A stretch of DNA of 64,000 nt from Capsulimonadaceae bacterium (GTDB lineage Bacteria; Armatimonadota; Armatimonadia; Armatimonadales; Capsulimonadaceae), in the NCBI GenBank assembly GCA_031292625.1, contig JARLGU010000058.1, forward strand, positions 8,903-72,902, read 5' to 3'. Each line of letters starts with the position of its first letter. Position 1 is the stretch's first letter. The position numbers and the translations under genes were made by a program. This document shows, piece after piece, positions 14,922 through 45,701 of this stretch. The notes under the pieces are model-generated. The model did no database searches. It was not told the DNA's origin and saw nothing but the letters and a program-made list of their open reading frames with translations.

Positions 14922-15062
14922 GGAATTGCACCCAATCTTCCTATGCGGATCGTCGCATTGATCGATTGCGAACGACCGGGCATACATCCACTAACAGATA
15001 TAAATTATAGGATATTAGCGGTCATCCGTCAAGACGTAACCGCACTCAATCGTATCATACCG

Positions 15063-17419: not shown

Positions 17420-17471
17420 TTGCCAACGCTGCCGCATGGTAGTATAATAGGGGCAGGGTGAAGCGGTACAC
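17420..17471 (+). promoter_or_regulatory. Sigma-70-type promoter (TTGCCA-17-TATAAT) plus imperfect palindrome GTGAAGCGGTACAC (candidate LacI operator)
   Basis: TTGCCA 17420-17425, TATAAT 17443-17448. The 14-bp palindrome 17458-17471 (5 of 7 pairs) sits between the -10 box and ATG 17477. Confidence 0.4.
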
Positions 17472-17476: not shown

Positions 17477-18487
17477 ATGACAACAATCGACGACATTGCA
17501 AGTGAGTGTAGGGTTTCAAGAACGGCCGTCTCGCAGGTCCTGAATGGAAAGGACCGCAAACTGAGCGCCGCGACTCGCGAGCGCATTCGCGATACCATGC
17601 GGCGCCTCAACTACCGGCCAAGCGCCAAAGGGCGAGCGCTTTCAACCGGCCGTTCCAACACGATCGGCGTCGTCACCAAAATGCAGTCGCATCTATTGGC
17701 AATGCCATACTTTGCCGATATCGTTAGCGCCGTACTCGACGGTGCGACCGAGGCAGAGATGACGATGGCGCTTTTCAACGGCAGCGTCTGGTCGAAAAGC
17801 GATCCTCAGCGACTGCTATTCGCTGACGGCCGGTGCGACGGGCTGATCGTAATCGGCGCATGGCAACTCGAAGGGTTGGTTGACGGGCTGATTCGCGCCG
17901 GTATCCCGTTTGTGGCCGTCAATAGCGGCGAACTGCCTGACGGATGCGCGTCTATCGATATCGACAACGTCGAAGCGGGCCGGGCCGCGACGCGCCATCT
18001 TGTCAGCCTGGGGCGCAAACGGATTGCTTATTGCCATGACGAAGAGGACAGTGCGTTTAGCCGTCAGCGATGCGACGGGTATGCGCAGGCTCTTCATGAG
18101 GCACACATCCCGGTTGAGGACAATCTCATTATTGGATGCCTGCCCGGCGTAAATAGCTACGGAAAAGGATTGCTTGCCGCCTCGATCAATCCGCCAATCG
18201 ATGCCGTGTTTTGCGCAGGCGATCAAGTTGCTTTAAGCGTGATGCAGGCCATTCGCGATTCGGGGATGTTAGTGCCCGATGATGTGGCGGTGGTTGGGGT
18301 AAACGGTGAATCGTGCGGAGCGGTGTCCGTGCCGTCCCTTACGACCGTGAGCCAGCGTCTCTTCGATCTCGGGACGGAAGCGGTGCGTATGCTGCTTGCA
18401 ATGATTGAAAACCCTAGCGCTGGAAAGCAACTCGTGTGGCCAACGGAATTAATAATTAGAAGTTCAACAACGAAAGAGGGGTCATGA
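17477..18487 (+). CDS. LacI family transcriptional regulator (cassette A)
   Basis: [27 protein letters not shown] plus a periplasmic-binding-fold effector domain. Confidence 0.9.
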
Positions 18488-19389
18488 AAATGAGACAAAC
18501 GAAGGCTTTTACCCTTATCGAATTACTTATAGTAATCGCTATCATTGCGATACTTGCTGCGATTCTTTTCCCGGTATTTGCGACCGCGCGGGAGAAGGCC
18601 CGGCAATCTTCCTGTTCGTCGAACCTCAAGCAGCTTGGTCTTGCAATTACCCAGTATGAGCAAGACTACGATGAGATGACGATTCATGGAACGAATAACT
18701 GGGGCGGCGGCGTCGGCTGGGGCGGCTCGATTTACCCGTACGTAAAGAGCAAACAGGTATTCGTTTGCCCAAGCGATGTATCAAAAGGGACGATCATCTC
18801 GTCTTACGGTTACAACGGCAACTTTGAGGGATGGACATCGAGTGGGATGCCGCAGCCGATATCGACGACCAAGATGAACGCGCCTTCGCGGACGGTGATG
18901 CTGTTCGAGGTGCAAGGCAACATCGCGTCTGGCTATTGCGCCGGTTACGATGTGTCAAACGAAACGCAGAACCAAAAGCAATGCTCACCCGCGGGTGAGG
19001 GCACATCCGACGGCTCCTCCAACTTGAATGGCGCGGGCGTAGTCTCCGGCGGAGGCAGTCTAATGTATGCGTTCGGCTATCCCTATATGCCATCTGGAAC
19101 GACGATCACCCTTGGCCTCTATGCTTCACCGACCGGGAGACACTCCAATGGCGCCAACTTTCTGATGGCCGACGGTCACGTAAAGTGGTTGCTGGGCACG
19201 CAAGTGGGCGTCGGTTACGATGTCGATCCGGCCATGCAGGCACAGGAGAACCCTTCCTGGATAACCAACGCCGAGTTCCCGGTTCCCGGCTATTGCGGCG
19301 GCTCGTACATGAATCCTCCCTGGTGGGAGACGGCGCCGGCGACGAGCTGCAATGTGCCGTCGCTTGCGGCGACTGTGGCCTATCATTAG
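18484..19389 (+). CDS. Prepilin-type N-terminal cleavage/methylation domain protein, DUF1559-like with H-X9-DG motif (cassette A)
   Basis: [60 protein letters not shown]...[15 protein letters not shown]...[23 protein letters not shown] overlap with the LacI gene. Confidence 0.85.
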
Positions 19390-19433
19390 ACCTTCGATCA
19401 CGACGGTTGGATTTTGACGAGGAGTTTTCGATT

Positions 19434-22076
19434 TTGCACTATCCTTTAAGAACCCTCATTGCGGGTACAGCGGCTCTCGTTGTTTTCTCCGGCCCGAGCA
19501 TGGCCCAGTCCGGATCAAGCCAGATGTTTTCCTTCGTAGCAAATTGGGATCAGGCTGTGCCATCGAGCGCGGTCGACATGTCTGGCTTGAATGCTAAGCC
19601 CGCCGGAACGAACGGACGAATCGTCGTCAAAGACGGACACTTCGTCGAGTCGAAGTCTGGCCACAGGGTGAAATTTCTCGGCGTTAATTTCACGACGGCG
19701 GCGGACTTTCCCAACCATCGGGACGCCGAAGTCATCGCCGTGCGGCTGGCGCGCATGGGCATCAACATTGTGCGCATCCATCATGAGGATGCCCGTTCCA
19801 CGCGCTGGCCGTGGTCGCCTCTGTGGGTTCATTCCACCACGCAGCCTGCCGCGTTTTCCGCCGATGGACAGGATCGACTCGACTATCTTATCGCTCAGCT
19901 CAAGAAGAACGGAGTTTACGTCAACTTGAACCTGCACGTCAGCAATACTTATTATCCATGCGACGGCTTCCCGGCTTCGGTGCTCGATATCCCAACCGAA
20001 TTCGACAAGAGAGTGGACGAGTACGATCGCCGCATGATCGAGTTGCAAAAGCAATTCGCGCGCGATTACTTGCGCCACGTCAATCCGTACACGGGGCTCG
20101 CCTATACGGATGATCCATGTGTCGCGGTCGTCGAGATAAACAACGAGAATTCGCTGACCGGGTGGCCGAGCATTGGAGACGAATGGTGGTGGGAGCGAGT
20201 CGAGTCGTTCACCGCGCTGCCTGAGCCGTTTCGCGGCGAACTGTTGACTATGTGGAACAAGTGGCTCGCCAGGAAATACACATCGGATACCGCACTCCGG
20301 AGTTCGTGGATTTCGAACGAGCAACTGGGCACGCCGGTTACAGCCGAAAATTTGCTCGCGCGCGGCGGCGGCATTCGGTGGGAACTTGAAGATCAAACGC
20401 ACGCCGCGAAGCTCGAGCCGGACGGCGATTCAGGGACTATCCGAGTGGACGCCCCAACGCTGCCCGACGCCGCTTGGAAGGTTCAAGCGCTCGCAAAAGG
20501 CGTCGACCTTTCGGAGGGCGCCTCATACGTGCTGACTTTTCGCGCAAAGTCGACCGAAAACCGTCCTATTGCGGCGTACGGGAGCATCGATATCGCGGAT
20601 TGGCACGGCATCGGATTTCATGATAAGCTCACGATCACTCCGGAATGGCAGGAGTACCGAATCCCTTTTTGGGCGGACAGCCTTATACCCGGGCATAACC
20701 GGATCGCTTTCGAGATTGGCGGCGCGACTTCCCCGGTTTGGCTGAGCAATGTTGTCCTCCGGCGCGCGTCCCGAGACGAGGTTTTGCCGGAAGGGCAATC
20801 CCTGGCGAACGGCACGGTCGGTCTTCCGTCGAGAGGAGCCAAGCAGGCTTGCGCCGACTGGATCCAATTCCTGGCCGACACAGAGCGTTCCTACGCCGAT
20901 GAAATGCGAGCCTTCCTTCACCACGATCTTGGCGTAAAATCGTGCATCATCGAATCCCAGGTCAATTACGGCGGCCTTTCAGGAATGGCGCGCGAGGCGG
21001 ACAGCGATTTTACCGACGCGCATGCGTACTGGCAGCATCCGGAGTTCCCTGGAACATCGTGGGACCCCGACAATTGGTTCGTAAAGGGCACGCCAATGGT
21101 ACAGGCTCTTGCAGATGGCCAGTGGTCCACGCTTGAGACCCTCGCATGCAACCGTGTCGCAGGCAAGCCGTTTACCGTCTCGGAATATAGCGAGCCGGCG
21201 CCGAACGACTATCAGGCTGAGATGATGCCAATTATTGCGAGCTATGCCGCTCTCCAGGACTGGGACATGATCTACCTGTTTGAGTATGGAGGGTATAGCG
21301 CCAAGCAGCCGCAAGACCGAATTCAAGGCTTCTTCTCGGTTGCCCAGAACCCCGCGAAGGAGACATTTTTCCCATCCGCCGCGCTGATTTTCCGGAGCAA
21401 TGGAATGCCGCCCCTTGCTTCAACGACGACTTTGAGCGTCGCGCCAAAAAGTATCGACAGGGCTGGCGATGCTCTGAATGAATGGTCGGTCGCGAACGGC
21501 GGAAGACCAGAAGATCTCTTCGCCGCCCGGCTGCAGACGCGGGTCGCCAGTAAGGCCGCACTCAGCTCCATTGCGCGGACAAAATTCTCGGACGCCAACC
21601 ATTCGTCGGTTCGTATCCAGCGCGGCGGCAATGGCGCGATCTATGTGTCGTCGAGCGATAAGGCGATTTCCGCTGCCGGCTTCTTTGGCGGGCAGACGAT
21701 CGAACTTGGCCCGGCAGCTTTCGCATTCCCATCATTCGGCAATAACTTCGGAGCGTTCACCCTTGTCACGCTCGATGGCAAACCGATCGCCTCTTCGAAC
21801 CACGAGCTTCTGACAATCACCGGCAAGGCTGAAAATCTGGACATGGGCTGGAACGCTAACCGCACGAGCGTAGGAAGCCGCTGGGGCCGCGGACCGGTCC
21901 AGGCCGAAGGGATTCCCGTCATGCTCACCTTGCCCCGTCCAGGGCTTCGCGTGTGGGCCCTGTCAACCACTGGCGAACGAACAAGCGAGGTTCCAATCGT
22001 GCAGACGGATGGCAAGGCAGTTGCCACGCTTGGACCGCAATACCGCACAGTCTGGTACGATATTGGGGTGAACTAG
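19434..22076 (+). CDS. Secreted clan GH-A (GH5-like TIM-barrel) glycoside hydrolase with a CBM4/9-like module
   Basis: Start reassigned to TTG 19434 (GAGGAG 9 nt upstream), giving the signal peptide MHYPLRTLIAGTAALVVFSGPSMAQ. VKFLGVNFT...GINIVRIHH...VAVVEINNENSL (NE acid/base motif). CBM-like segment WKVQALAKGVDLSEGASYVLTFRAKS..EWQEYRIPF. Confidence 0.65.
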   Translation: MHYPLRTLIAGTAALVVFSGPSMAQSGSSQMFSFVANWDQAVPSSAVDMSGLNAKPAGTNGRIVVKDGHFVESKSGHRVKFLGVNFTTAADFPNHRDAEVIAVRLARMGINIVRIHHEDARSTRWPWSPLWVHSTTQPAAFSADGQDRLDYLIAQLKKNGVYVNLNLHVSNTYYPCDGFPASVLDIPTEFDKRVDEYDRRMIELQKQFARDYLRHVNPYTGLAYTDDPCVAVVEINNENSLTGWPSIGDEWWWERVESFTALPEPFRGELLTMWNKWLARKYTSDTALRSSWISNEQLGTPVTAENLLARGGGIRWELEDQTHAAKLEPDGDSGTIRVDAPTLPDAAWKVQALAKGVDLSEGASYVLTFRAKSTENRPIAAYGSIDIADWHGIGFHDKLTITPEWQEYRIPFWADSLIPGHNRIAFEIGGATSPVWLSNVVLRRASRDEVLPEGQSLANGTVGLPSRGAKQACADWIQFLADTERSYADEMRAFLHHDLGVKSCIIESQVNYGGLSGMAREADSDFTDAHAYWQHPEFPGTSWDPDNWFVKGTPMVQALADGQWSTLETLACNRVAGKPFTVSEYSEPAPNDYQAEMMPIIASYAALQDWDMIYLFEYGGYSAKQPQDRIQGFFSVAQNPAKETFFPSAALIFRSNGMPPLASTTTLSVAPKSIDRAGDALNEWSVANGGRPEDLFAARLQTRVASKAALSSIARTKFSDANHSSVRIQRGGNGAIYVSSSDKAISAAGFFGGQTIELGPAAFAFPSFGNNFGAFTLVTLDGKPIASSNHELLTITGKAENLDMGWNANRTSVGSRWGRGPVQAEGIPVMLTLPRPGLRVWALSTTGERTSEVPIVQTDGKAVATLGPQYRTVWYDIGVN

Positions 22077-22190
22077 TAAGTCCACTAGACACAAGCGCGT
22101 GCCGATGCCTCTTTCCTGGCCCGATGATGGTCATGGAGGCGTCTGTCTGTGACGACCGTCTTTTGACACGATTTCAAGGAGATACGGATC

Positions 22191-23195
22191 ATGAAAAATC
22201 CATTTGGATTTTGTACTCTGATTGCTGCTGTTGTCTGCGCCGCATGCCTCGCTTCGTCCGAGGCGAATGCGCAAACCCCGATTCTAAGCTTTTCATCGTC
22301 CGGAGGTGGTTGGGGGACGTGGGTCGCCGACGATGCAAAAGCCACCGTAGCGCCCGACAACCCGGCGCCGGAGTCGGTAACCAACTTGCTCCAACCCGCC
22401 AATATACCCGGGGCATGGAACATCAGCTTCGCGTTCCCCGATCAATCAAAGGCGTCCATTGATGGCGATTCGCTTTGCATCCATCAGGATAAAGTCGGGG
22501 CGGACCCGTGGCTCGCAAGCATCAGTCAGACGGATCTTCCGATAAAGGAGGGGCAGGCTTACGTTCTTAGCTTTAACGCGAAGGCCGACAAAACGAGACC
22601 AATATTCGTGACCATGCAGAACTTTGGCTTCTCATCCGGGGATTGGCATGACCTGGGCCTTGCGCAAGACGTGCAACTGTCCTCAGAGTGGCAATCCTAC
22701 TCATACTCCTTTACCGCATCGAAGCTCACCCAGGACGGATCCGCACTATTCATCCACGTCGGCCAACAGACAGGCGCCGTATGGGTTTCCGGCTTCAGTC
22801 TTAAGCCAGCTTCTGGAACTCTAACACTCCCGGTTCCTTCCAAAGCGGTTAAGGTCTCGCTTGAAAAGCCGAGCGACACCGATTGGCATGTCCAGTACAT
22901 TTCTGACCCGTTCGACCTGATAGATGGGCACAAGTACGCACTTAGCTACATGATTAAATCGGATGTGCCTCGCAAGATTAGCTGCATGGCCCGTCTTAAC
23001 TGTCCGGACTGGCATGCAGTCAGCGACGCAGACTGGTCGGTCTCAGCGGCGCCCGCGTGGCGATCTCATCGAATCGTGTTTACCGCGAAACACTCGATGC
23101 CCGGTCACAACGTCGTCGTATTCAATCTAGGCGGTTCAGGCAGCGGCTCTTTCGTATCGATTGGCGACGTGAAGATGGTCGACCTGGGCAACTAG
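22191..23195 (+). CDS. Secreted protein with two CBM4/9-like carbohydrate-binding modules
   Basis: Signal peptide MKNPFGFCTLIAAVVCAACLASSEANA. Two repeats of the pattern ...DPW...Q..L.I.EGQAYVLSFNAKADK / ...DLIDGHKYALSYMIKSD... AAGGAG lies upstream. Confidence 0.55.
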   Translation: MKNPFGFCTLIAAVVCAACLASSEANAQTPILSFSSSGGGWGTWVADDAKATVAPDNPAPESVTNLLQPANIPGAWNISFAFPDQSKASIDGDSLCIHQDKVGADPWLASISQTDLPIKEGQAYVLSFNAKADKTRPIFVTMQNFGFSSGDWHDLGLAQDVQLSSEWQSYSYSFTASKLTQDGSALFIHVGQQTGAVWVSGFSLKPASGTLTLPVPSKAVKVSLEKPSDTDWHVQYISDPFDLIDGHKYALSYMIKSDVPRKISCMARLNCPDWHAVSDADWSVSAAPAWRSHRIVFTAKHSMPGHNVVVFNLGGSGSGSFVSIGDVKMVDLGN

Positions 23196-25362: not shown

Positions 25363-25419
25363 TTGACAGCCGTTCGGGTATGCTGTACAATGAGCTTGTT
25401 ATATTCTGTTATTTTACAG
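25363..25419 (+). promoter_or_regulatory. Promoter TTGACA-17-TACAAT with TGTACA-containing inverted repeat (candidate operator of the chimeric GntR/LacI regulator)
   Basis: TTGACA 25363-25368, TACAAT 25386-25391. Inverted repeat CTGTACAAT (25383-25391) / ATTTTACAG (25411-25419). Confidence 0.4.
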
Positions 25420-25432
25420 AAGGATTTCCAGT

Positions 25433-26563
25433 ATGGCGCAACGGAAGACAACGGGGGAGCGAAGACGATCGCTCGCAGACAGCCTCAGACGCGCAGCGCG
25501 CGATGGCAGCCTGCCGGTCGGGACAATGCTTCCCACGGTGCGGGAGCTGTCGGCCGAGTATCAGCTTTCCGTTTTCGCGGTTTCCAAGGAGCTTCAGGTC
25601 CTTGTCGACGAAGGCATTCTCTACACGTCCCCACGCGTCGGGACATTCGTCGGCCAATCCTTAGAGCACATTTCGCGGTGCTTCTTGCTTACGACGGCAT
25701 CCGCGCCGTTCATCCCGTTCATCAAGCTCGGCTTTGAAGAACGCATCGCGCAACTTGGCGCGTCCAGCCTCGTATTGCCCGTCGACGAGGCAGTCGGAAA
25801 CCTTCACGCGGGGACGCTGCCCGAACTCTCGGGCGTGTTCGACTTTGCGACAAGCGAACGATCTCCGGTCGCCTGGCCGTCCAGCGACGATGTCCCGCTC
25901 GTTCGCTTTGCCGACCGCGACGTGGTCGAGCCATCTGACCCGCACCACCACGCAGACCGAATCTACTTTGATGAAGCGGGAGGCGGCCGGCAGGCTACGT
26001 CGTATCTTCAACGATTAGGACACACGCGCATCGCTTATGTTGCCCTGCATACATCCGAGGATCATGCCTACTATCTCTGGTCGGCCAAGCGTATGCACGG
26101 TTGGCGAGACGCCATGGACAGGGCCGGACAGGATGTCTCCGACCTGATCTTCCTCCCTGCTGAGGAACCTAGCGATCTGTACGACGAAACCGCGACGGCA
26201 GCGAAAGCTGCTCGAGCAATGATCGGGCGCGCCGATATCACGGCTGTCGTCGGCGCCAACGACAACGCCATTGCCGGCTTAATCCAAGCGTTGCGCGAGA
26301 GCCATGTACCGGAATCGCGGTGGCCTGCGATGGTCGGCTTCGACAATCAGGCGGAGGTCAATCGTCACGTCCTCACATCGCTGCGTCTGCCCTGGGAAGA
26401 CGTCGGACGCGCCGCGGCTCAGCTCCTCTGGGACCGCTCATCCGGTCAATTGACGGGCCCGCCGGAGTTTGTATCCATTGCCATGCGTATGATTGCGAGG
26501 CCGGGCACAAACCACGGCGTCCTTGGCAGCGGGCGCAGCGCGAAAGCGTTGGCGGTAACGTGA
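25433..26563 (+). CDS. AraR-like chimeric regulator: GntR-type wHTH + LacI/GalR-type sugar-binding domain (cassette B)
   Basis: [44 protein letters not shown] (GntR HTH), followed by a LacI-type periplasmic-binding-fold region (RIAYVAL..., [18 protein letters not shown]). Confidence 0.8.
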
Positions 26564-26609: not shown

Positions 26610-27449
26610 ATGAAGACAAAGGTAAGCAAGAATCATCGAATAGCGTTTACTCTTATAGAGCTTCTCGTAGTTATTGCCATCATTGCAATTCTTGCAGCAA
26701 TCCTATTTCCGGTATTCGCGACGGCGCGGGAGAAGGCGAGGCAGTCGAACTGCACAAGCAACATGAAGCAACTTGGAATGGCGTTTGTACAGTATACGCA
26801 GGACTATGACGAAACCGTGCCCTGCGGACCTTACGTCTACGAGTTCGGCGTCGGTTGGGCGTCGCAGCTTTATCCCTACGTGAAGTCGACGGGAGTATTC
26901 CGATGTCCCGACGATATGACGCCTGATGGAAACGGCCATGTAACGTCCTATGCCTATAACCAAAACTTTGGAACCAACGTCTGGGGCGTTAGCAATAAGG
27001 GCGATTCTCTCGCGCAGTTTGCGGCGCCTGCGAAGACCGTCGTCTTGTCCGAGATCAGTGGAGATGCAAGCGACGACGTCACAAAGCTCGCGAATGCTGC
27101 ATCTCCCGTCGGCTACGGTCTCGTCGCCTGGTACGATCCATACAGCCAAACGGCCAGCGTCTCGAACACGTGCACGAGCACGCCGGTCTTACAATACGCG
27201 ACGGGATATATCGGCGGCCGCGCCGGCGACTGTCACTACAATGCGCCTCTTGGACGCCACAACAACGGCGCCATCTACCTGCTTGCTGACGGACACGCGA
27301 AATGGCTGTTGGGCAGCTCCGTAAGCGGCGGCACAAACGCGGGATCGTCGAGTTGGGGACAGGCGACGGCGACGGGTTTCGTCAACGCGGCCGGCACGAG
27401 CGGGACCGTGAGCGGCGTCCCGGTCACCGCGACGTTCAGCATTATGTGA
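26610..27449 (+). CDS. Prepilin-type H-X9-DG (DUF1559-like) protein (cassette B)
   Basis: [99 protein letters not shown]. Confidence 0.85.
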
Positions 27450-27495: not shown

Positions 27496-29682
27496 TTGTT
27501 TCAACGGCTATCGGCTCGAATGCGCCTCGTGTTTCATACCGTTCTAGTGTGCATAATCGGCACTCACTGCGCCGTCGGAGGCGCAAACGTGCTGAGTTGG
27601 CGACCGCTGTGCGAGCCGGGTAACGGAGGATGGATTACCAGCATTTCCGTGAGCCCGTTCGACTCGAAGCGCGTACTCGCAGGCGGCGATATGCTTGGCG
27701 TCGCGTTCAGCGAAGATCAGGGCGAAAGCTGGAAACGAGCATCAGGTTTCAAGAGTTGGGAAATCGCCGACTTCACTTGGAATCCTTCCATTCCCAACGA
27801 CGTGTGGGTCGGCACGATGAGCGGCCCTTACGAAAGCGTGGACGGCGGGCGAACCTGGACGGAACGGCGGGCGGGCTTTCCGCAGATCAACGCTGGAGCG
27901 TATAGCGCCCCGATTCAAAAGATATTGTTCGATCCAAACGACCACCGGCATCTGCTCGCGTTTGGCGGATCGCACAGGATCTGGAACTCGCCTCCCGGGG
28001 CGCTTTGGGGAGCCGTGTGGGAAAGCCGTAATGGCGGTATATCGTGGTCTCGAATCTCGACCATCCCGTCGGCCGATTCGCCCGGCGGAAACATTGTAGC
28101 GGCTAGCTTCGCGGCAAAATCGTCGGCGATAGTGTACGTTGCCGTCGCTAAACTTGGCGTATTCGTTAGCGGGGATGGCGGAAGATCATGGACCGCCCGA
28201 AACCAGGGTTTGCCGCACACGGATGCCGGCGCTCTCGCCGCTAGCCCGGCTCACCCAAAAACACTTTGGGTAGCGCTCAACAGCTGTAAGCCAGCCGGTC
28301 AAGATGCCTGCATTCCCGGCGGTATCTACAAAAGTGTCGATGGAGGATTAACGTGGCGCCAAGCTCAAGGCCCAAGCAGCGTGGCGACGACGAACGTCAA
28401 CACGACGGCGCGCTACAAAGCGATCGCCGTCGCTCCCAGCGCTCCCAATATTCTGGTAACGGCCGACTATCGATGGGGGACGAAGGGGATTTACATAAGC
28501 GCTGACGGCGGACAAAGCTGGCGAGTCGCGGCTAACAAAAATGAAGTCGATACGCCGTGGACATCTGGACTGGGCATGACGACCGTCGCGTTCGATCCGC
28601 AAAACGCAAATGTCGCCTTCGCCGGAGGCGCTGAATCGATACTAAGAACGCTGGATGGCGGCAAGACGTGGACTGACGCGACGTCCATCCGAACCGGCGC
28701 CGGATGGCGGGGACGCGGATTTGAAGGATTCGTATGCGAGAGCGTCGCGTTCGACCAACATGATTCCCTGCACGTGGCTATCTCCGGATGTGATCACGGC
28801 AACTTCTGGCAAAGCTTCGACGGCATGCAATCTTGGATATGGGGCGGAAGCGGCATGCCGGATTGGGGAGGAAGCGCCAGTATCTCGTTTTCGGTTGAAG
28901 GCACGACCTACGTCGGTCTCGGGCAAGACGGGCGTTTCAATGGAATTGGACGGACATCTGACAACGGAAAAACATGGGAAATAGAGGCGGGTCCCCAATA
29001 CGGGTTGCCCGTCCCCGAGAAGGATACGAAATCGTCAGCAGTCGCCGTATACGCTATGCAGAACGACGCGAACACGGCTTGGGCAACGATTGGAGGTCAG
29101 CTTTACAAAACCGCAGACGGCAAAAACTGGAAAATCGTCTGCGAAGGACCGGGACTGAATTCGTTTGCGACCAGCCCGCGCGAGCCGCTCCAATTCTTCG
29201 TGTCGGGAACAGACGGCATATACGAAACCGATGACGGCCAGACGTTTTCGCTGATCGCTGGCAGTCCCCGCCACGTCACCCGCATCGCGGTGGACTCGCG
29301 AGGATGCGTCTATGCAACCACATGGCGCGCTCATCCCGAACCTGCTGGGCTGTGGCGACTAAAGAACGGGACATGGACCCTCGTAAGAAACGATCCCTAC
29401 ATATACAGCGTCGCCATCGATCCTTCGGATCCGGACAGAATCGCCGTGATCACCAACGACGATCCGTACCACGATCATAGCTTTGCGAGCGGCGTTTGGA
29501 TTTCTGAGGACGGGGGCGTAAACTGGTCACAGGAAAATGACGGTCTCGCCGTCGCTCGCGGACGCTGCGTTGCTTTTGACCCACACAATCCAGAAACTCT
29601 TATTGCCGGAACCGGCGGCGGCGGTTTCTACATCGCCCGCTGGCCGAGGAAGCAGAGGGCGATCACAATGCCAGACAAATAG
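27496..29682 (+). CDS. Secreted BNR/Asp-box repeat beta-propeller protein (GH74/sialidase-superfamily-like)
   Basis: At least nine S-x-D-x-G-x-(T/S)-W boxes (SEDQGESW, SVDGGRTW, SRNGGISW, SGDGGRSW, SVDGGLTW, SADGGQSW, TLDGGKTW, TSDNGKTW, SEDGGVNW). Start is TTG 27496 or ATG 27520. Confidence 0.7.
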   Translation: MFQRLSARMRLVFHTVLVCIIGTHCAVGGANVLSWRPLCEPGNGGWITSISVSPFDSKRVLAGGDMLGVAFSEDQGESWKRASGFKSWEIADFTWNPSIPNDVWVGTMSGPYESVDGGRTWTERRAGFPQINAGAYSAPIQKILFDPNDHRHLLAFGGSHRIWNSPPGALWGAVWESRNGGISWSRISTIPSADSPGGNIVAASFAAKSSAIVYVAVAKLGVFVSGDGGRSWTARNQGLPHTDAGALAASPAHPKTLWVALNSCKPAGQDACIPGGIYKSVDGGLTWRQAQGPSSVATTNVNTTARYKAIAVAPSAPNILVTADYRWGTKGIYISADGGQSWRVAANKNEVDTPWTSGLGMTTVAFDPQNANVAFAGGAESILRTLDGGKTWTDATSIRTGAGWRGRGFEGFVCESVAFDQHDSLHVAISGCDHGNFWQSFDGMQSWIWGGSGMPDWGGSASISFSVEGTTYVGLGQDGRFNGIGRTSDNGKTWEIEAGPQYGLPVPEKDTKSSAVAVYAMQNDANTAWATIGGQLYKTADGKNWKIVCEGPGLNSFATSPREPLQFFVSGTDGIYETDDGQTFSLIAGSPRHVTRIAVDSRGCVYATTWRAHPEPAGLWRLKNGTWTLVRNDPYIYSVAIDPSDPDRIAVITNDDPYHDHSFASGVWISEDGGVNWSQENDGLAVARGRCVAFDPHNPETLIAGTGGGGFYIARWPRKQRAITMPDK

Positions 29683-31605: not shown

Positions 31606-32808
31606 ATGCCAAGATCCAAGTCGACAACCGATCCGCTGCCAGTTTACAAGCGCATTGAAAACGATATACGCGTCAAAATACGGCGCGGAACCTGGTCGGC
31701 GGGAGCTCTTCTGCCGAGCCGGAACACGCTGGCATCGGATTATAATGTATCTGTTGGAACCGTCGAGCGCGCCATCTCAAAGTTGCTGGCCGAGGGGACA
31801 CTGCAGGCGACGGATCGCTCGGGGACGTTCGTCAGCCTGAGCGCCAACCTCGAGACTTCTTCGTCAGCCGGTCAGGCAGCGCCGAAGCCCCGCAAAGAGG
31901 TGCTTGGCATCGCCATTGCGTTCCAAGAGGCAACGTTCGGCGTCTCGGACAGCCTGTTCCTATGGTCGCGCACGATCACGACATCGCTCGAACGCACCTT
32001 CGTGGCGCGCGGCGGCGGCGTCCGCGTCTGCAATGCGTATCACCCTGAAGGCTTATCCCGGAACGCCCTTCGCGAGACAATCGACCAGTTGATCGCCGAG
32101 GGCGCGACGGCAATTGTCGTGGAAAACATCCACGATGGCTTCGGAGAGCGGTCGATATCAGACCTGGACGCACTCGTAAAGGATGGCAGCGTCCCTATTG
32201 TATGCACCGTGCCGCGCGAGTTCCACGGCAGCGTCCCTCAGGTGTACTGCAACCTCGCGCAGACCGGGTTTCTCGCGGTTGAGCATCTCATGAGCCTGGG
32301 CGAGCAGCACGTAACCGTGATCGCTCCGGACAATCGCGACTGGATCGAAGAGCGCATCGCGGGAGCCCGGCGAGCAATCCAGTACTTGGAACTGCCGCAT
32401 TCCGCGCTCGATGTCGTCAACGCCGGCGCCCATTTAACGCTGCAAGGGGCGGTCGGCGCGCACTTTACCGATATCGCATACGATTTGACAAAGCAAATGA
32501 TTGCGGACGGTCGACTGACGAACGGCATCTTCGCGGTAAACGACGCCGTCGCGTACGGAGTGCTGAAGGCCGCGAAGGAAGCCGGGCTGCAAGCAGGCCG
32601 GGATTTTAGCCTGGTGGGCGTGGACGACGCGCCTTTGTCCCAAGTGCATGGGTTGACCAGCTTCCGGCCGCCCATGGAGGACGTTGCGGCGGAAACAATG
32701 CACCTGCTTGAGCGAGTGAAACAGAACGCGAAATCGGATTTGCGCGTCAATTTGAGACCGCAGCTTCTCGTCAGGGCATCTTCAAGGCGCCTCGATAGCA
32801 AGGAATAG
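31606..32808 (+). CDS. AraR-like chimeric GntR-HTH / LacI-type sugar-binding regulator (cassette C)
   Basis: MPRSKSTTDPLPVYKRIENDIRVKIRRGTWSAGALLPSRNTLASDYNVSVGTVERAISKLLAEGTL plus a periplasmic-binding fold. ATG 31606 is preferred because the track start 31564 lies at or before the predicted -10 box. Confidence 0.8.
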   Translation: MPRSKSTTDPLPVYKRIENDIRVKIRRGTWSAGALLPSRNTLASDYNVSVGTVERAISKLLAEGTLQATDRSGTFVSLSANLETSSSAGQAAPKPRKEVLGIAIAFQEATFGVSDSLFLWSRTITTSLERTFVARGGGVRVCNAYHPEGLSRNALRETIDQLIAEGATAIVVENIHDGFGERSISDLDALVKDGSVPIVCTVPREFHGSVPQVYCNLAQTGFLAVEHLMSLGEQHVTVIAPDNRDWIEERIAGARRAIQYLELPHSALDVVNAGAHLTLQGAVGAHFTDIAYDLTKQMIADGRLTNGIFAVNDAVAYGVLKAAKEAGLQAGRDFSLVGVDDAPLSQVHGLTSFRPPMEDVAAETMHLLERVKQNAKSDLRVNLRPQLLVRASSRRLDSKE

Positions 32809-32850: not shown

Positions 32851-33672
32851 ATGAAAATACATCGAAACGCCGGGCTATTCGCAGCATTCACGTTAATCGA
32901 ATTACTAGTTGTTATCGCTATTATAGCGATTCTCGCGGCTATCCTATTCCCCGTGTTCTCCACGGCGAGGGAGAAAGCCAGGCAGACCAGTTGTTTGAGC
33001 AACCTCAAGCAGATTGGACTTGGATACGTCCAATACACGCAGGACTACGACGAGATGTCGCCCTATACTTGTTATACGGGTTCCATTTCGACCACATGCG
33101 GAGGATCCAACGACGGCGGCGGCACATCGCTCGGCTTCGACTTGAATCCCTATATCAAGGCGGCCAACGTTTGGCGCTGTCCGAGCGACACGGTCCATTC
33201 CGCGCCTGTCAGCGCGATCGCATCGACATCACAGGGCGGCCTCGGGTACGGCGGGTTTGCAAACCCGAGCTACGCATACAATATGTACTTCATGGAGCAG
33301 ATCGGCGTCGGGACATCGACGGATGCGACGCCAAAGCCGCTGCAGATGTCCCAATTGCAAACTCCCGCCAACGACGCGGTAATCATGGGTTCGTGGGGCA
33401 CGCCCGGCAGTCTGAATTATTCGTGGCTGTTGGACGGAGCATTTCAGTTCGACACGCGAACGGAAGGCTGCACCGGCTATATCCCAAACGACTTCGACTA
33501 CCGAACCTATATCACGCAACCCCTCATGACGGGGCACAACAACGGAGGAAACGCCGCTTACGCTGACGGCCACGCGAAGTGGTACTCTACCGGCTATCTT
33601 GTCGCACAGACCGCGAAGGAAGTGCCTCCGACGGCAACCGCGCAGGTTCGGCCCAATATGATTCACGAATAG
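32851..33672 (+). CDS. Prepilin-type H-X9-DG (DUF1559-like) protein (cassette C)
   Basis: ..[87 protein letters not shown]. Confidence 0.85.
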
Positions 33673-33879: not shown

Positions 33880-33929
33880 TTGACAATCTTATTCCCTCGT
33901 GTTAGAATATCGTCAGAGTAACCGGTTTC
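33880..33929 (+). promoter_or_regulatory. Promoter TTGACA-17-TAGAAT plus AACCGGTT-centred palindrome (candidate LacI operator)
   Basis: TTGACA 33880-33885, TAGAAT 33903-33908. GTAACCGGTTTC 33918-33929 contains the perfect 8-bp palindrome AACCGGTT, just upstream of ATG 33937. Confidence 0.45.
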
Positions 33930-33936: not shown

Positions 33937-34977
33937 ATGACAACGATCACTGACATCGCTAAAGCCTGCGGAACATCGAAGGCGACGGTATCCAAGATCA
34001 TGAACGGCAACGATCTCAAGATCAGCGCCGGGACTCGCAAGCGGGTCATGGAGGCGGTTCGACGTCTGGACTATCAGCCAAGCGCAATGGCGCGCGGATT
34101 ATCGATGAAGCGGGCCAACACGATTGGCATCGTGACGCCCAATGTATGGCACATCTTGAGTTTGACATACTACGCCACCCTGATCGGCGCAATTCTCGAC
34201 GAAGCCCGCAACAACGAGCAAACCGTGAGCGTATTCAACTCGAAAGTTTGGGCCAAGGACGCGCCCGATCACCTCGTATTCGCGGATGGACGATGCGACG
34301 GATTGGTTCTCGTTGGCGTCTGGGATGAGCGCTTGATGCCTGCCTTGCAGAAGGCTCGCATCCCCTTTGTCCTCCTTAACGGCGGCGCGGGCCCGGAAGG
34401 CGCTTACTCCATCGATATCGACAACTTCGATACGGCGGCTGAAATCACGCGTTACCTGATCGCACAGGGCCACAAGCGGATCGCCTATTTCGATTGCGGC
34501 GAGGCGAGGGATTTTGCGCACCGGCGATTTGCCGGCTATCGCAGCGCACTGGCGGAAGCGGGAATTCGTTACGAGCCAATGCTTGTCTTTGACGGTCCCC
34601 CACTCTACGAATCGGCCTACGATCGCGGACGGCAGGTCGCTTCACGCACCGGCCTGGGCATCACGGCGCTGTTTTGCGCGAGCGATCTCATCGCCCTCGC
34701 GGCGATGCGCGGTCTACAGGATTCCGGGTTGCGCGTCCCCGACGATGTTTCCGTTGTCGGCATCAACGGCATCATCGACGGCGATCGCTCATCGCCGCGC
34801 TTGACGACCGTAACTCAATCGCTCGACACGCTTGGCGCGGAGGCCGTGCGGCTACTGCTCGACGTCATCGAAGGCCGGGACGCCGCGCCAAGGCACGTCG
34901 TATGGCCGACAATGTTGATTGAGCGGGATTCCGTGGCGGCTCCGGCCGGCGCATCGATCGAATTAGCCTGCAAGTAG
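33937..34977 (+). CDS. LacI family transcriptional regulator (cassette D)
   Basis: MTTITDIAKACGTSKATVSKIMNG. A clear paralogue of the 17477-18487 product (same domain order and many shared blocks). Confidence 0.9.
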   Translation: MTTITDIAKACGTSKATVSKIMNGNDLKISAGTRKRVMEAVRRLDYQPSAMARGLSMKRANTIGIVTPNVWHILSLTYYATLIGAILDEARNNEQTVSVFNSKVWAKDAPDHLVFADGRCDGLVLVGVWDERLMPALQKARIPFVLLNGGAGPEGAYSIDIDNFDTAAEITRYLIAQGHKRIAYFDCGEARDFAHRRFAGYRSALAEAGIRYEPMLVFDGPPLYESAYDRGRQVASRTGLGITALFCASDLIALAAMRGLQDSGLRVPDDVSVVGINGIIDGDRSSPRLTTVTQSLDTLGAEAVRLLLDVIEGRDAAPRHVVWPTMLIERDSVAAPAGASIELACK

Positions 34978-35007: not shown

Positions 35008-35889
35008 ATGAGAAACTGCAAGGGATTTACGCTTATCGAACTACTCGTTGTGATCGCTATCATTGCCATCCTGGCCGCGATTCTATTCCCGGTGTTTGCC
35101 GCAGCGCGGGAAAAGGCGCGCGGCGCGGCATGTCTATCGAACCTCAAACAGCTGGGGTTGGCGTATTCGCAGTATGAGCAAGACTATGACGAGACGGTTC
35201 CTTCCGGCACGAACCCCTACGGAGGGGGGAACGGCTGGGCGGGACAGGTCTATCCCTACGTCAAGAGCCTCAATGTCTTTCTGTGTCCGGATGACACGAC
35301 GCAAGACGACGTAATCTCATACGCGACCAACGCCAACATGGTCGGCTACACGGCGGCGATTACGCCGATCCCGGCTACGATTGCAGTCCTGACGAGCCCA
35401 TCGTTAACGGTACAGCTATTAGAAGTGGTGAACTGTTCCGGTTTTATCGTTTCCACGAGCGATGTCCAGCACTCGCCCTGCGCGCTAGGGATCTCCATAT
35501 TGAGTTCAAACACGCTCAACGGCGGAAACTCAGGGAACGGGACAACAACGTTGACGTCGCTCAAATATGCGACCGGCTTGTTTGCCAATGCTTATGCCGT
35601 TGGAGATACACAAGACCCAAATCCAGCCGATATCACCGGAACGAATTCCTACTTCACGTCGCCGGATGGCCGCCACCAAACGGGGTCAAACTTTTTGATG
35701 GCTGACAACCATGCCAAGTGGCTCAAGGCAGCTACCGTCGGAGCTGGCAGGGACAAAGTCATCAATGGGGTTAATTATCCCGCATCTTGTCCGCCCAGCC
35801 GCCTGAATGGCATCGCGCCGACGACGACCTGTATGCAAAGCACCACGGGCGCTGCATTCCAGTACAGCGCGACATTCGCGCTGCATTAG
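35008..35889 (+). CDS. Prepilin-type H-X9-DG (DUF1559-like) protein (cassette D)
   Basis: [93 protein letters not shown]. Confidence 0.85.
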
Positions 35890-38801: not shown

Positions 38802-38823
38802 AGAACGGTTTCCAGAGACGCGT

Positions 38824-40688: not shown

Positions 40689-43600
40689 CTATCGTAGCTC
40701 GATCAGTCTCGGCTGCATGGGCGCCAGGGTAATAGCATTCAAATCCACGGTCTCGCCGGACAGGAGATCCTTCACTCGCCCGAAGCGGCCGACGGGTGAT
40801 TTTACAGTGACAGTGGATTTCATCAGGTTAATCGCGGACACGTACGTCTTTCCCTGGTCGCTCACGACACGGTATTCGATTCCGAATATCGGCTGCCCCG
40901 ATTGCGCGTCATGCAACTCTCCTGGGGCGCCCACGTTACGGGCAATTTGAGCAAGCTGCTCAAAGACCACATGATCGTCATCGCTGAATGGAAGCGGCGC
41001 CGGCTTGAGGGAGGCGGGGAGGCTACGCTCCCGATTATAGATATCGCGGCGCAAGTTGCCGTCGCCCAGCGCGATGAGCGTTCCGCCGCCTTTCACGAAG
41101 CGCGCGAGGGCATCGATGGTGCGATCGTCGACATTTGCCGCCTGCGGCAAGAGGATCGCCTTGACAGCCGGTGCGGTCCCTTCAGCCAGTTCCTTTTCGG
41201 TCACGAACGTCACCGGCTCGCCAAGGAAGGTCAGCGCCGTGTACGCCGCGCGAAGCGACGAGGCGTAATTCTTCTGCCAAAACAGCGATGTGCGCGTGTA
41301 CAAGATTGCAATGTGCGGCTGGGCGCGGATGATCGCCGCTGCCTGGCTTGCGCAGCGACGGGCATCCAGCCACGCGCGGCCCGCGCCATAGACATCGGCC
41401 GGGCGGAAGTAGATGCTGCCATAGAGGGAACTCTTCGGATCGGTCTCCTCGGCCCATACCCAGATAGCCGACGCTCCCACTCCGTGGATTGCACCTTGCC
41501 ACATTGCGGAGCGGACATAGTCCGCCGGGACAGCCTCCGTGCTCTGATCGGGAATGATGTGATTTTCGGAGTTGAACACCGGTTGATGGCGAAATGAGCG
41601 CAGGAGATCGTACGTGAGTTCAGCCTCGCGCCAACCATACGCATACTCCGATGATGTTGGGATTGGCGCCGCACTCGAACCCGGCATGCTCGTGTAGTCG
41701 TCGTTCCCGGCTATATCGGTGATGTCACAGAATTGCTCGGGGTCCACGCCTTGATAGAAGTATTCACGTTGAAGAGCGTAGAACACCATGATCTTGTCGT
41801 GCGTGAGCACATTCGGCGCCGCCGCTTTCACCAGGCCGTTCATCCATCGATGCCAATCGGCGAAATGCTTTTCGTTAAATTCTGCCCAGTCGTAATAAGC
41901 CCGCAGCTTCTCGACCGGCGCGGCTAGATCGGGAGGCGTGGACACGGGGACCGGAACATCGTCGAAACTGGCGTACGACGTGCTGTAAAGCGCGTTGAGC
42001 GTTTCGATGTTGCCATGGCGCTTCTTAAGATATTCGATCCACAGTAACCTTGAGTACGCATCGCGGCCACTCACCTGGTAGACCGGCTCGTTGGAAAGGT
42101 TTACCGAAAGAAGCGACGGTTCATTCTTAACTGCAGAAACCGCCCGCGAAACCCACTGCGCGATCGCCTGCCTAGCGACGGGATGATCGATGTTGAACCT
42201 GATAAAGCCTTCGTTGCCCTTAGCGGCCACATCTGAGCTCTTATTCATCGCCCAAGCCGGAAAATTATGAGGCGAGAGCATAAGGTCGTACTTTTCGTTC
42301 GATTCGTTCGCTCGCTTGAACCGGGAAATCAGGCTCTCAATCGCCCCCGAATCGCTTCCATCCGGTCCCAGCGCGTCAGCGCCCATTTCGTTTTCAATAA
42401 TCGACGCGCCTATCCCGGTGAAATTCGGTATGTCCGCAATCACTTGCTTCCAGCCATTATAACCGCCGAAAAAAGTGGGCTGGCCAGAGGCCGTCACGAA
42501 CACGCCGCGCTCTATCCTCACGGGACCGGCAGTAAGAGGCGGAATACTCGGAATAGGTGCGCGCATTATGCGCCCGGTCTCATTAAGAACCGAAGTAGTA
42601 TCTTGAAGCTGCAAACAGCTCCAGTAGTCGCTCTGAATCGATTTTCGATTGTGTGACTGAACCCTTTCCAGATATCGCTGAACAACGTTGAACCCCAGCC
42701 GAATATACGAGTTGTTTTCCAATCCGCGCGAGGCTACCTCAGCACGCATTTTAGCCAACCTCTCCGTCGTCTTCAAGATCCTATCTGAAAGGATCTCCGC
42801 AGCATCGCGCCTGCGTATGTTGGTCCGAGCAATTGGAGCCTTAACCCCGTCCAAACACCCGGTAATCGTATCGGTCCCCTTCGGGAACAGCGCCGCCGAG
42901 ATCGAAAACGACAGGCTTGCGACGGTGCATTCACGAACAGATTCGATCGGTATGCGCCCCAGAACACTTTCCGGCCTGGCACGGCATCGCGATATGATCA
43001 CGACATTCCCGCCGCGATATCCAGCCGGAACCGTGAACGTCAGCGTCCCGTTAACATCTTCCGAAGCATCGTAGCTATCCGGCTCGAACGCGCCTGGCGT
43101 AACCACGAAGCGGCCGGGCGCGAGGGCCGCGGCAGGCCGCAGCCTGGCGGGGTATATCCATGTGTGGCGCTGCCCGGCTTCCGCGACGGCAACATCATCG
43201 ACAAGCAGCTCCTTGGTCGGTCCGTCCGTGTTGATAATCACTAGCCACGTCGTTGCGTCCTTTGCCGTCTTGAATGGAAGCGCGACGCGTTGCCAGTCCG
43301 GAGTGTCCGACGGAATCCTTTGCCGAATTGCCCATCCAGGGCCGCCACCAAACCAACAGTCTTGCGCGCTCTTGGACTTGACCCAGAGGCTAAGCTCATA
43401 ATCCGTATCCGGCCTTAGCCCCGAAATAACCTGCTGGAGCCCGGCGCCGACGTTAGGTCCAAATGCCGACCGATTGGTCATCCGAAACGCTCTGAGTCCC
43501 GAATGGGCGTCAGCCTGAATGACGCAGCCATCAGCATCCGCCATCGAAACATGCCAATCCCAGCCGCTCACTCCCTGCTCAAAACCTGGGTTGACGACTT

Positions 43601-43751
43601 TCAATGCGGCCAAAGGAACCGCTGCTTGCGAAACGCCGCCTAGGTAGACGACGGACATTCCCGCAAGAAATATGTTACGGAGCAATCGGAAACAGTTCAT
43701 ATATTGTTGTCTCGTGATCGATAGCATTGCGCTTTCCGCATGACGTTGCAT
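40689..43751 (-). CDS. Secreted GH42-like (clan GH-A) beta-galactosidase-family protein with N-terminal CBM4/9-like module (cassette E)
   Basis: CBM-like NPGFEQGVSGWDWHV...LRAFRMTN...YELSLWVKSKS. TIM-barrel region with NLSNEPVY (NEP acid/base). C-terminal ILLPQAANVDDRTIDALARFVKGGGTLIALG resembles the GH42 trimerisation domain. Start is uncertain (43751, 43727 or 43700; the signal peptide is clearest from 43700, MNCFRLLRNIFLAGMSVVYLGGVSQA). Confidence 0.65.
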   Translation of the reverse strand: MQRHAESAMLSITRQQYMNCFRLLRNIFLAGMSVVYLGGVSQAAVPLAALKVVNPGFEQGVSGWDWHVSMADADGCVIQADAHSGLRAFRMTNRSAFGPNVGAGLQQVISGLRPDTDYELSLWVKSKSAQDCWFGGGPGWAIRQRIPSDTPDWQRVALPFKTAKDATTWLVIINTDGPTKELLVDDVAVAEAGQRHTWIYPARLRPAAALAPGRFVVTPGAFEPDSYDASEDVNGTLTFTVPAGYRGGNVVIISRCRARPESVLGRIPIESVRECTVASLSFSISAALFPKGTDTITGCLDGVKAPIARTNIRRRDAAEILSDRILKTTERLAKMRAEVASRGLENNSYIRLGFNVVQRYLERVQSHNRKSIQSDYWSCLQLQDTTSVLNETGRIMRAPIPSIPPLTAGPVRIERGVFVTASGQPTFFGGYNGWKQVIADIPNFTGIGASIIENEMGADALGPDGSDSGAIESLISRFKRANESNEKYDLMLSPHNFPAWAMNKSSDVAAKGNEGFIRFNIDHPVARQAIAQWVSRAVSAVKNEPSLLSVNLSNEPVYQVSGRDAYSRLLWIEYLKKRHGNIETLNALYSTSYASFDDVPVPVSTPPDLAAPVEKLRAYYDWAEFNEKHFADWHRWMNGLVKAAAPNVLTHDKIMVFYALQREYFYQGVDPEQFCDITDIAGNDDYTSMPGSSAAPIPTSSEYAYGWREAELTYDLLRSFRHQPVFNSENHIIPDQSTEAVPADYVRSAMWQGAIHGVGASAIWVWAEETDPKSSLYGSIYFRPADVYGAGRAWLDARRCASQAAAIIRAQPHIAILYTRTSLFWQKNYASSLRAAYTALTFLGEPVTFVTEKELAEGTAPAVKAILLPQAANVDDRTIDALARFVKGGGTLIALGDGNLRRDIYNRERSLPASLKPAPLPFSDDDHVVFEQLAQIARNVGAPGELHDAQSGQPIFGIEYRVVSDQGKTYVSAINLMKSTVTVKSPVGRFGRVKDLLSGETVDLNAITLAPMQPRLIELR

Positions 43752-45672: not shown

Positions 45673-45701
45673 ATTATAGGCGATACAATAAAACTTGTCA
45701 A
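45673..45701 (-). promoter_or_regulatory. Consensus promoter TTGACA-17-TATAAT placed so that transcription would start at or next to the LacI ATG (leaderless)
   Basis: Minus strand: TTGACA (45701-45696), 17 nt, TATAAT (45678-45673), tggctt, ATG (45666). Confidence 0.5.

Follow-up and report, generated by a model that had tools for sequence, protein, structure and literature searches.

Polysaccharide-utilisation loci (PULs), both those of the SusC/SusD type in Bacteroidota and those of Gram-positive bacteria, bring together in a small locus a substrate-responsive regulator and secreted carbohydrate-active enzymes (CAZymes) or carbohydrate-binding modules (CBMs), occur in many paralogous copies per genome and contain one recurring envelope component that can serve as a marker gene. 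Here we describe five cassettes, designated A to E, that share these traits and in which the recurring envelope component is a prepilin of the DUF1559 (H-X9-DG) family. They lie in a stretch of 64,000 nucleotides (nt) from Capsulimonadaceae bacterium (a soil bacterium of the phylum Armatimonadota; GenBank assembly GCA_031292625.1, contig JARLGU010000058.1, positions 8,903 to 72,902), the whole of which was analysed and is referred to below as the window. The cassettes differ from described PULs in that the regulator is the first gene of the operon. Neither SusC nor SusD families were found among the Pfam-scanned open reading frames (ORFs) of the window and, whilst a regulator and a CAZyme occur together in cassettes A, B and E in the manner of Gram-positive PULs, no transporter is present in any of the window cassettes. 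The association of DUF1559 genes with sugar regulators and carbohydrate loci that we report is real and lineage-specific, with an exact gene order that varies.

Type IVb pili can secrete a protein by way of a cognate minor pilin, as in the TcpB–TcpF pair of Vibrio cholerae and the CofB–CofJ pair of enterotoxigenic Escherichia coli, the pilin acting as the export adaptor. By analogy, this would be the closest known mechanism to a secretion-adaptor role for the cassette pilins, with pilin and secreted protein encoded together in both cases. Those systems, however, encode a single adaptor in each pilus operon, alongside the machinery, whereas the pilin genes described here number in the dozens, stand alone and are under sugar repressors. 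In Planctomycetes, pili built from dedicated pilin-like proteins have been proposed to fish for polysaccharides (Boedeker 2017, as cited in PMC12078418), and the xylan-induced pilin PilA of Caldicellulosiruptor bescii binds xylan and cellulose (bioRxiv 10.1101/614800). Both cases resemble ours in linking pilins to polysaccharides, through polysaccharide induction and pilin–glycan interaction, but C. bescii PilA is one major pilin inside a Firmicute type IV pilus (T4P) locus, genes have not been assigned to the planctomycete 'fishing-rod' hypothesis, and neither comes with a LacI–pilin–CAZyme cassette. Papers that mention the DUF1559 family treat its function as unknown, and our search of the literature on DUF1559, H-X9-DG and pseudopilins or prepilins with CAZymes or PULs found no description of a LacI/GntR–DUF1559–CAZyme cassette.

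The genes of the five cassettes are as follows (HTH, helix-turn-helix; aa, amino acids; GH, glycoside hydrolase family):

17477..18487 (+), cassette A regulator, LacI family, 336 aa; LacI HTH 47 bits, Peripla_BP_3 118 bits
18484..19389 (+), cassette A DUF1559 prepilin-type protein, 301 aa; ATGA overlap of its start with the regulator stop
19434..22076 (+), cassette A secreted protein, 880 aa; N-terminal barrel weakly GH5-like, CBM_4_9-like region in the interior
22191..23195 (+), cassette A secreted protein, 334 aa; two CBM_4_9 domains
25433..26563 (+), cassette B regulator, GntR HTH and Peripla_BP_3 (AraR-type), 376 aa (Pfam)
26610..27449 (+), cassette B DUF1559 prepilin-type protein (Pfam, NCBIfam)
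27496..29682 (+), cassette B secreted BNR/Sortilin-type beta-propeller (Pfam, PDB profile match)
31606..32808 (+), cassette C regulator, GntR HTH and Peripla_BP_3, 400 aa (Pfam)
32851..33672 (+), cassette C DUF1559 prepilin-type protein; enzyme gene not next (Pfam, NCBIfam)
33937..34977 (+), cassette D regulator, LacI family (Pfam), 346 aa; shares 49% identity with that of A
35008..35889 (+), cassette D DUF1559 prepilin-type protein, nearest paralogue of that of A; enzyme gene not next
44530..45666 (-), cassette E regulator, LacI family, 378 aa (Pfam)
43770..44516 (-), cassette E DUF1559 prepilin-type protein, 248 aa, with the most divergent head (Pfam, NCBIfam)
40689..43751 (-), cassette E secreted CBM_4_9 and GH42/GH167-like glycosidase, 1020 aa (Pfam, PDB)

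A six-frame scan of the window for prepilin motifs, together with Pfam searches of its ORFs, identified exactly five prepilin-type DUF1559 genes. Each has a regulator gene directly 5' on the same strand, at measured distances of -4 nt in A, where the ATGA overlap reported in an initial annotation of this DNA is confirmed, and 46, 42, 30 and 13 nt in B to E, which replace the 1–30 nt given there for the cassettes other than A. A hidden Markov model (HMM) built from the window regulators found no unpaired regulator combining a LacI or GntR HTH with a periplasmic-binding-protein domain (LacI/GntR-PBP) in the window. The initial annotation had described five regulator–pilin–glycosidase cassettes; the regulator–pilin unit holds for all five, but a CAZyme completes it only in A, B and E (three of five), where the enzyme gene begins 44, 46 and 18 nt, respectively, after the pilin stop and starts with a Sec-type signal peptide, as read from the sequence. 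C and D comprise regulator and pilin alone: the C pilin gene is followed by the promoter and regulator of D, and the D pilin gene by a low-GC polyvalent-protein fragment gene (ART-PolyVal and PBECR1), a tRNA-Ser gene and a PIG-L deacetylase gene. The four genes of cassette A are identical in independent gene calls made on a Logan assembly of the same locus.

The downstream products vary in how firmly they can be classified. In cassette A the CBM_4_9-like region of the 880-aa protein is present as annotated (residues 256–482 share 27–28% identity with the double CBM_4_9 protein), but the GH5 assignment is weak, with a Pfam E-value of 0.004, under the Pfam cut-off, and an E-value of 2e-4 against GH5 mannanases in the PDB. 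The annotation of the B product as a BNR propeller and of the E product as a CBM joined to a GH42-like enzyme both hold. The former gives a weak match to PDB 6p2k (E 5e-10), which we take to be a GH74 enzyme, whilst the latter matches 6ptm (E 2e-42) and 9whd ('GH167', E 5e-39). CBM_4_9 recurs 3' of DUF1559 genes: the A enzyme has an internal copy, the A CBM protein two and the E enzyme an N-terminal one; among loci from relatives (designated by L and a number; see below) it is found in L106 (1986–3950, weak) and L171 (5522–6142), the latter adjoining the closest homologue of pilin A.

All five regulators belong to the LacI/GalR and AraR-type sugar repressors, with an HTH domain joined to a Peripla_BP_3 effector domain: A, D and E have a LacI HTH and B and C a GntR HTH (the AraR architecture), in every case above the Pfam cut-offs. 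Between 17 and 36.5 kb, the top-scoring sigma-70-like sites of the plus strand sit right upstream of regulators A, B, C and D, with 10–11 matches out of 12. These and other promoter-region features are as follows:

17420..17448 (+), A promoter-like site TTGCCA-17-TATAAT, 11/12, 29 nt before the regulator start
25363..25391 (+), B promoter-like site TTGACA-17-TACAAT, 11/12 (sigma-70 scan)
25404..25421 (+), B candidate operator, inverted repeat TTCTGTTATTTTACAGAA, between the -10 hexamer and the start codon
31545..31573 (+), C promoter-like site TTGACA-17-TACCAT, 10/12 (sigma-70 scan)
31576-31596 (+), C boxes TGTACA and TGTATACA, after the promoter-like site
33880..33908 (+), D promoter-like site TTGACA-17-TAGAAT, 11/12 (sigma-70 scan)
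33918-33929 (+), D box AACCGGTT, after the promoter-like site
45673..45701 (-), E promoter-like site TTGACA-17-TATAAT
45687-45710 (-), E 24-nt palindrome overlapping the -35 hexamer

The inverted repeats at or just past the promoters of B, C, D and E could be operators. A palindrome search found no clear operator in cassette A, and a terminator scan found no informative sites at gene boundaries.

To ask how far this arrangement extends, we turned to relatives. The closest homologues of the pilins come from Capsulimonadaceae, including Capsulimonas corticalis, and several DUF1559 paralogues can be found on single contigs of metagenome-assembled genomes. We retrieved 80 loci from species-representative genomes and 80 from metagenomes (1.7 Mb), located DUF1559 and LacI/GntR-PBP genes in them with HMMs built from the window proteins and counted as a pair any same-strand regulator ending less than 300 bp upstream of a DUF1559 gene with at least 1.1 kb of upstream sequence (n = 181). 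Pairs were found for 20 of the 181 genes, 18 of 81 in the metagenome set, which holds the closest relatives, and two of 100 in the genome set, both of them from Armatimonadota. Seen from the other side, 20 of the 41 LacI/GntR-PBP regulators in these loci lie directly upstream of a pilin gene. Pfam annotation of upstream neighbours in Armatimonadota-like loci gave Peripla_BP_3 proteins in 20 of 102 cases (12 LacI, 7 GntR) and AraC-type proteins, the second commonest of these neighbours, in eight of 102, against at most one in 110 for each amongst background ORFs of the same loci lying more than 3.5 kb from any DUF1559 gene (Fisher p = 2e-6 for the LacI/GntR type alone and 3e-8 with AraC included). 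The neighbourhood predicted from the window is thus enriched in relatives. It is not a general DUF1559 trait: amongst upstream neighbours in non-Armatimonadota loci, mostly from the Planctomycetota–Verrucomicrobiota–Chlamydiota (PVC) superphylum, Peripla_BP_3 and AraC each account for at most one in 71, and the regulator–pilin–CAZyme context seen in Armatimonadota-like loci is absent from this PVC sample. The initial proposal of a polysaccharide-utilisation module is therefore upheld as a genomic association within Armatimonadota and not for DUF1559 genes at large.

Downstream, six of ten regulator–pilin pairs examined are followed by recognisable CAZyme-like proteins, the large ORFs comprising three GH5 (one weak), a beta-helix protein, a GtaA six-hairpin protein and a GH20 with a weak CBM_4_9, and the other four by large ORFs free of Pfam domains. 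A wider downstream census yielded four GH5, three DUF4838, three Beta_helix, three Laminin_G_3, two GH42 and two BNR proteins. Gene-called and Pfam-annotated Capsulimonadaceae contigs show the orders GntR-PBP–pilin–GH51-like, GntR-PBP–pilin–853-aa protein, LacI–pilin–DUF4832 and pilin–566-aa protein–GH5+GDSL, and the pilin genes of C. corticalis sit amongst GH172, GH35, GH52, GH3, GH42, Spherulin4 and several LacI genes, with an ABC sugar importer downstream of one of these pilin genes.

Two kinds of downstream ORF in these loci deserve mention. Several large Pfam-free ORFs (444–917 aa) stand directly after DUF1559 genes in L082, L001, L108, L113, L166 and L168 and may be unclassified carbohydrate-active enzymes. 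In C. corticalis (L162, AP025739.1), Pfam-free ORFs of 71 and 80 aa (10940–11155 and 18021–18263) come right after two DUF1559 genes on the same strand and may be a recurrent small partner gene.

What, then, are the pilin-like proteins? All five score above the Pfam cut-offs for N_methyl (PF07963) and DUF1559 (PF07596), and all five carry a class III signal (PF07963, TIGR02532; mature F1 and E5). Against DUF1559 (268 model positions, gathering cut-off 23.3 bits) they reach 36.8–69.7 bits, and they share with the family the REKAR..C.SNLKQLG helix and a C-terminal H..D(G)H. They are unlike the DUF1559 model in that four of the five align to only about the first 60 of its positions (2–64, as against 2–139 in D), and the strict H-X9-DG motif, which the initial annotation took to be common to all, is literal in A, B and C but reads H-X9-DN in D and H-X9-DA in E. 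The cut-off of the corresponding profile, TIGR04294 (19 bits), is exceeded by A (35.4), C (20.3) and E (25.3), with B (17.7) and D (16.2) just below it. The leader residue at -1 is alanine in A, B and C (18484–18507, 26610–26645 and 32851–32886) and the canonical glycine in D and E.

Comparison with characterised pilins gives a similarly divided picture. Mature residues F1, E5 and P22, hallmarks of assembled type IV pilins, are invariant across the five. The best NCBIfam and PDB matches are to this group: in NCBIfam the assembly helix falls with those of GspG (PulG), PilA and ComGC, the profile matches in the PDB are type IV pilins, and class III leader, F1, E5, P22 and long helix alpha-1 are common to all. 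The likeness ends near residue 60, however, the cassette head has roughly double the common size, and the genes are dispersed over sugar operons, unlike pilins of the type II secretion system (T2SS) or T4P in their machinery operons. Equivalog scores are low: 29–39 bits for GspG (TIGR01710, cut-off 88.85; positions 1–57 of a 134-position model), 33–39 for PilA (NF041775, cut-off 400) and 27–32 for ComGC (NF040999, cut-off 75), with subfamily scores of 16–23 bits for the Verru_Chthon cassette models TIGR02596 and TIGR02599 (cut-offs 70 and 256.5). By these curated models, the proteins classify as members of the DUF1559 prepilin family and not as GspG, PilA or Verru_Chthon cassette proteins.

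Pilins B to E are 40–51% identical to A overall, but this average conceals approximately 100% identity over the first ~56 mature residues and 30–46% in the heads, in line with the divergent middles first noted. The identical N-termini are not the product of gene conversion: over these 56 codons, 21–30 of the 43–48 codon pairs specifying the same amino acid differ synonymously, and because synonymous sites are saturated the identity reflects purifying selection on old paralogues. Such conservation of the helix exceeds, on this sequence comparison, what a mere membrane anchor would need.

One feature of these genes at the DNA level is that the 24 codons of the invariant hydrophobic helix are 33–47% GC against 56–60% in the rest of the pilin genes. 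The low-GC helix segments are:

18508-18579 (+), cassette A
26646-26717 (+), cassette B
32887-32958 (+), cassette C
35026-35097 (+), cassette D
matching part of 43770-44516 (-), cassette E

The AT-rich codons used (TTA, ATA, CTA) differ between paralogues, and amino-acid composition explains part of the bias; a translational pause for membrane targeting is possible.

Regulator and pilin have not travelled together. Over 29 pairs their divergences are uncorrelated (Mantel rho 0.07, a value reached by 270 of 2000 permutations), which rejects duplication of the two genes as a module; only A and D, with regulators 49% and heads 46% identical, look like duplicates of one unit. Since LacI, GntR and AraC regulators have all been recruited and divergence is uncorrelated, the arrangement appears to have been selected repeatedly and not inherited as one ancestral cassette. 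Nor do the heads cluster by neighbouring enzyme family: those beside GH5-type enzymes do not group together, and the sole tight pair, L110 with L108, is a pair of orthologues. Synteny of pilin A is not conserved either. Its closest homologue, in L171 (60% identity), is accompanied by a regulator only 31% identical to that of A and by a downstream gene unrelated to the A enzyme, although this gene likewise begins with CBM_4_9, and the sole homologue of the A enzyme (L087, 46% identity) adjoins a regulator gene in divergent orientation and a pilin gene.

The structure of the head was examined by modelling. AlphaFold2, using a 58-sequence alignment, gave a model of pilin A with a mean predicted local distance difference test score (pLDDT) of 87 and a predicted template-modelling score (pTM) of 0.86, consisting of a 50-residue helix alpha-1, a small sheet and long loops; the head alone gave 88 and 0.89, respectively. 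Foldseek searches of the PDB with the full-length model matched only helix alpha-1 of type IV pilins, at E-values of at least 0.4 (best 0.44), and searches with the head found no match (best E 1.9, TM-score below 0.15). Sequence profiles reach only helix alpha-1 of pilins and GspG in the PDB, and a profile of the C-terminal half finds nothing at E-values up to 10. On these models the head is not recognisable as a CBM, lectin, solute-binding or pseudopilin domain; as it has no solved structural relative, only helix alpha-1 ties the DUF1559 protein to the pseudopilins. A solute-binding-protein or CBM fold for the head was also rejected, Foldseek having found neither with the full-length or the head-only model. 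Homology between the H-X9-DG region and the C-terminal calcium-binding loop of GspG was likewise rejected for want of any support: the GspG models align only to helix alpha-1, the C-terminal-half profile has no PDB match, and Foldseek finds no pseudopilin head.

These results bear directly on the proposal that each head binds glycans in a substrate-specific way or serves the neighbouring enzyme as its dedicated adaptor. With no solved CBM, lectin, solute-binding or pseudopilin fold to match, no clustering by enzyme family, no correlation with the regulator, a closest pilin A homologue in a different setting and no enzyme in C and D, that proposal is not supported, whilst membership of a glycan-utilisation module holds; the original idea is thus partly supported.

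The function that we favour, tentatively and at slightly less than an even chance even with its umbrella claim included, is that the cassettes are glycan-utilisation operons with sugar-induced, interchangeable pilin or pseudopilin subunits that aid the export or surface presentation of co-induced enzymes. The LacI- or AraR-type repressor would be read from its own strong sigma-70 promoter, and the cognate sugar would release it, so that pilin-like protein and enzyme are made together; each unit would then be a co-transcribed, autoregulated, sugar-inducible operon. The prepilins would undergo processing and enter a single type IV filament machine common to all of them, of either the T2SS-pseudopilus or the type IV pilus class, whose genes would lie beyond the window; PilBCDQMT, PulDEF and 79 PulG-like genes are reported from a related species (PMC4072686). 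There they may serve the outer-membrane, envelope-crossing step of glycan use, the likeliest job being to assist in bringing the co-induced enzymes to the cell surface, or in keeping them there, in the manner of a T2SS. Since prepilin-peptidase site and assembly helix are the same in all five and only the heads of ~200 residues differ, the proteins are most likely interchangeable subunits of one machine, and strict identity of the helix amongst paralogues fits subunits that have to pack against each other in a single filament and share a peptidase and an assembly platform.

Several observations weigh against this. Neither T2SS or T4P machinery nor a prepilin peptidase was found among the Pfam-scanned ORFs of the window, the leader residue at -1 departs from the canonical glycine in A, B and C, and the GspG and PilA equivalog scores fall far under their cut-offs. 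The head lacks a solved structural relative and varies independently of enzyme family and regulator. A downstream secreted enzyme is missing from cassettes C and D and from about one in four of the pairs outside the window, and some C. corticalis pilin genes precede an ABC (ATP-binding cassette) sugar importer or a cytoplasmic oxidoreductase, an arrangement that fits a glycan regulon member better than a secretion helper.

A broader formulation is that Armatimonadota possess a third PUL design, in which the recurring envelope component, in place of a SusC/SusD pair or an ABC (ATP-binding cassette) binding protein, is a sugar-induced interchangeable subunit of a single common type IV filament and carries a variable head with a locus-specific task, be it glycan capture or enzyme export and display. 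We regard this as unlikely in so full a form.

The observations on C, D and the importers lend themselves to another explanation, that the heads bind the polysaccharide that yields the inducing breakdown product and a retractile type IV filament holds the cell to the polymer or draws the polymer into the periplasm, fishing-rod fashion, the enzymes being only co-regulated. The minimal conserved unit is indeed regulator plus pilin; on this account proximity to an ABC sugar importer would be natural and the heads could vary strongly (30–46% identity) on a fixed helix; the planctomycete hypothesis and C. bescii PilA provide precedents. Against it, the head matches no known CBM or lectin fold, heads beside GH5-type enzymes do not group together, the head 60% identical to that of A has an unrelated regulator and downstream gene, and neither a retraction ATPase nor other machinery was found in the window. 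We consider capture pili to be the main, though rather unlikely, alternative.

Doubtful in greater degree is a role outside any filament, in which the protein, fixed in the inner membrane by its N-terminal helix, would serve oligosaccharides or the enzyme as a binding protein or chaperone in the periplasm. In sugar operons the gene directly after that for LacI is often one for a solute-binding protein, and this is the very slot that the pilin occupies here. The Pfam identifier of PF07596 is 'SBP_bac_10', an older paper labels the family likewise, and the conserved cysteines suggest an extracytoplasmic location. Against these must be set the two confident models (pLDDT 87–88), in which no two-lobed periplasmic-binding-protein fold could be matched in the PDB, and the invariant residues F1, E5 and P22 with a helix that has stayed unchanged whilst synonymous sites became saturated, which together exceed the needs of an anchor. 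Furthermore, in C. corticalis a true SBP_bac_1 gene shares an operon-like run with a pilin gene, showing that the pilin does not replace the solute-binding protein. This role is accordingly improbable.

Least probable of all is the absence of any functional coupling, with DUF1559 genes simply numerous enough to adjoin anything (8000 of 8000 scored candidates matched the family, and 68–79 paralogues per genome are reported in the literature) or with one ancestral pair multiplied, as A and D might suggest, for background ORFs of the same loci lack these regulators, nearly half of the regulators (20/41) stand directly before a pilin gene, three regulator families have been recruited into pairings that uncorrelated divergence indicates were re-formed repeatedly, and the gaps are tight with a single strong promoter upstream of each regulator.

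Elsewhere in the window, the region where an enzyme gene of cassette D would be expected (35890–38915) has a GC content of 0.538 against ~0.58–0.60 and encodes an 876-aa polyvalent-protein-like product with ART-PolyVal and two PBECR1 repeats, which ends just past an HEIAH motif. It is followed by a tRNA gene:

38824-38915, tRNA-Ser(GGA), directly after the polyvalent-protein-like gene

This region resembles what is left of a mobile element that had integrated at the tRNA. The stretch from the tRNA gene to the end of cassette E contains a gene for a 524-aa membrane-anchored PIG-L/LmbE-type deacetylase (39021–40595), which may have been displaced from cassette D or may belong to the surroundings of E; Pfam PIG-L corresponds to CAZy family CE14. 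Cassettes B and C are separated by minus-strand genes (29698–31414) for an AraC-family regulator (Cupin and HTH_18) and an inosine-uridine nucleoside hydrolase. Genes for a LuxC-like acyl-CoA reductase, a LuxE-like acyl-protein synthetase and a STAS-domain protein (14541–17386, minus strand) directly precede cassette A in divergent orientation.

Further away, a MarR regulator gene precedes two tandem genes of DNA polymerase III alpha type (53170–61067, plus strand; 1066 and 1170 aa). Both products contain PHP, DNA_pol3_alpha, finger, HHH_6 and OB domains, and the first, which scores lower, may be a DnaE2-like copy. A minus-strand run (48394–51945) encodes a major facilitator superfamily (MFS) transporter, GTP cyclohydrolase I, a protein in which the 6-pyruvoyl-tetrahydropterin synthase domain occurs twice and a 222-aa protein whose DarT-like match stays below threshold (E 3e-4).

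DUF1559/H-X9-DG prepilins are amongst the largest paralogous families in Planctomycetota, Verrucomicrobiota and Armatimonadota, at a reported 68–79 copies per genome, and the family is also known from Lentisphaerota. The link to sugar repressors and glycosidases gives this family of unknown function its first testable functional clue, and does so in a lineage with cultured members, Capsulimonas corticalis and Chthonomonas calidirosea. If the pilin does work in glycan use, it would add a new architecture to the polysaccharide-utilisation loci, provide a marker gene for CAZyme loci in soil Armatimonadota and bear on the unproven idea that planctomycetes take up polysaccharides with fishing-rod pili. 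Were a third PUL design to prove correct, it would give DUF1559, a very large family in the PVC superphylum, its first assigned function.

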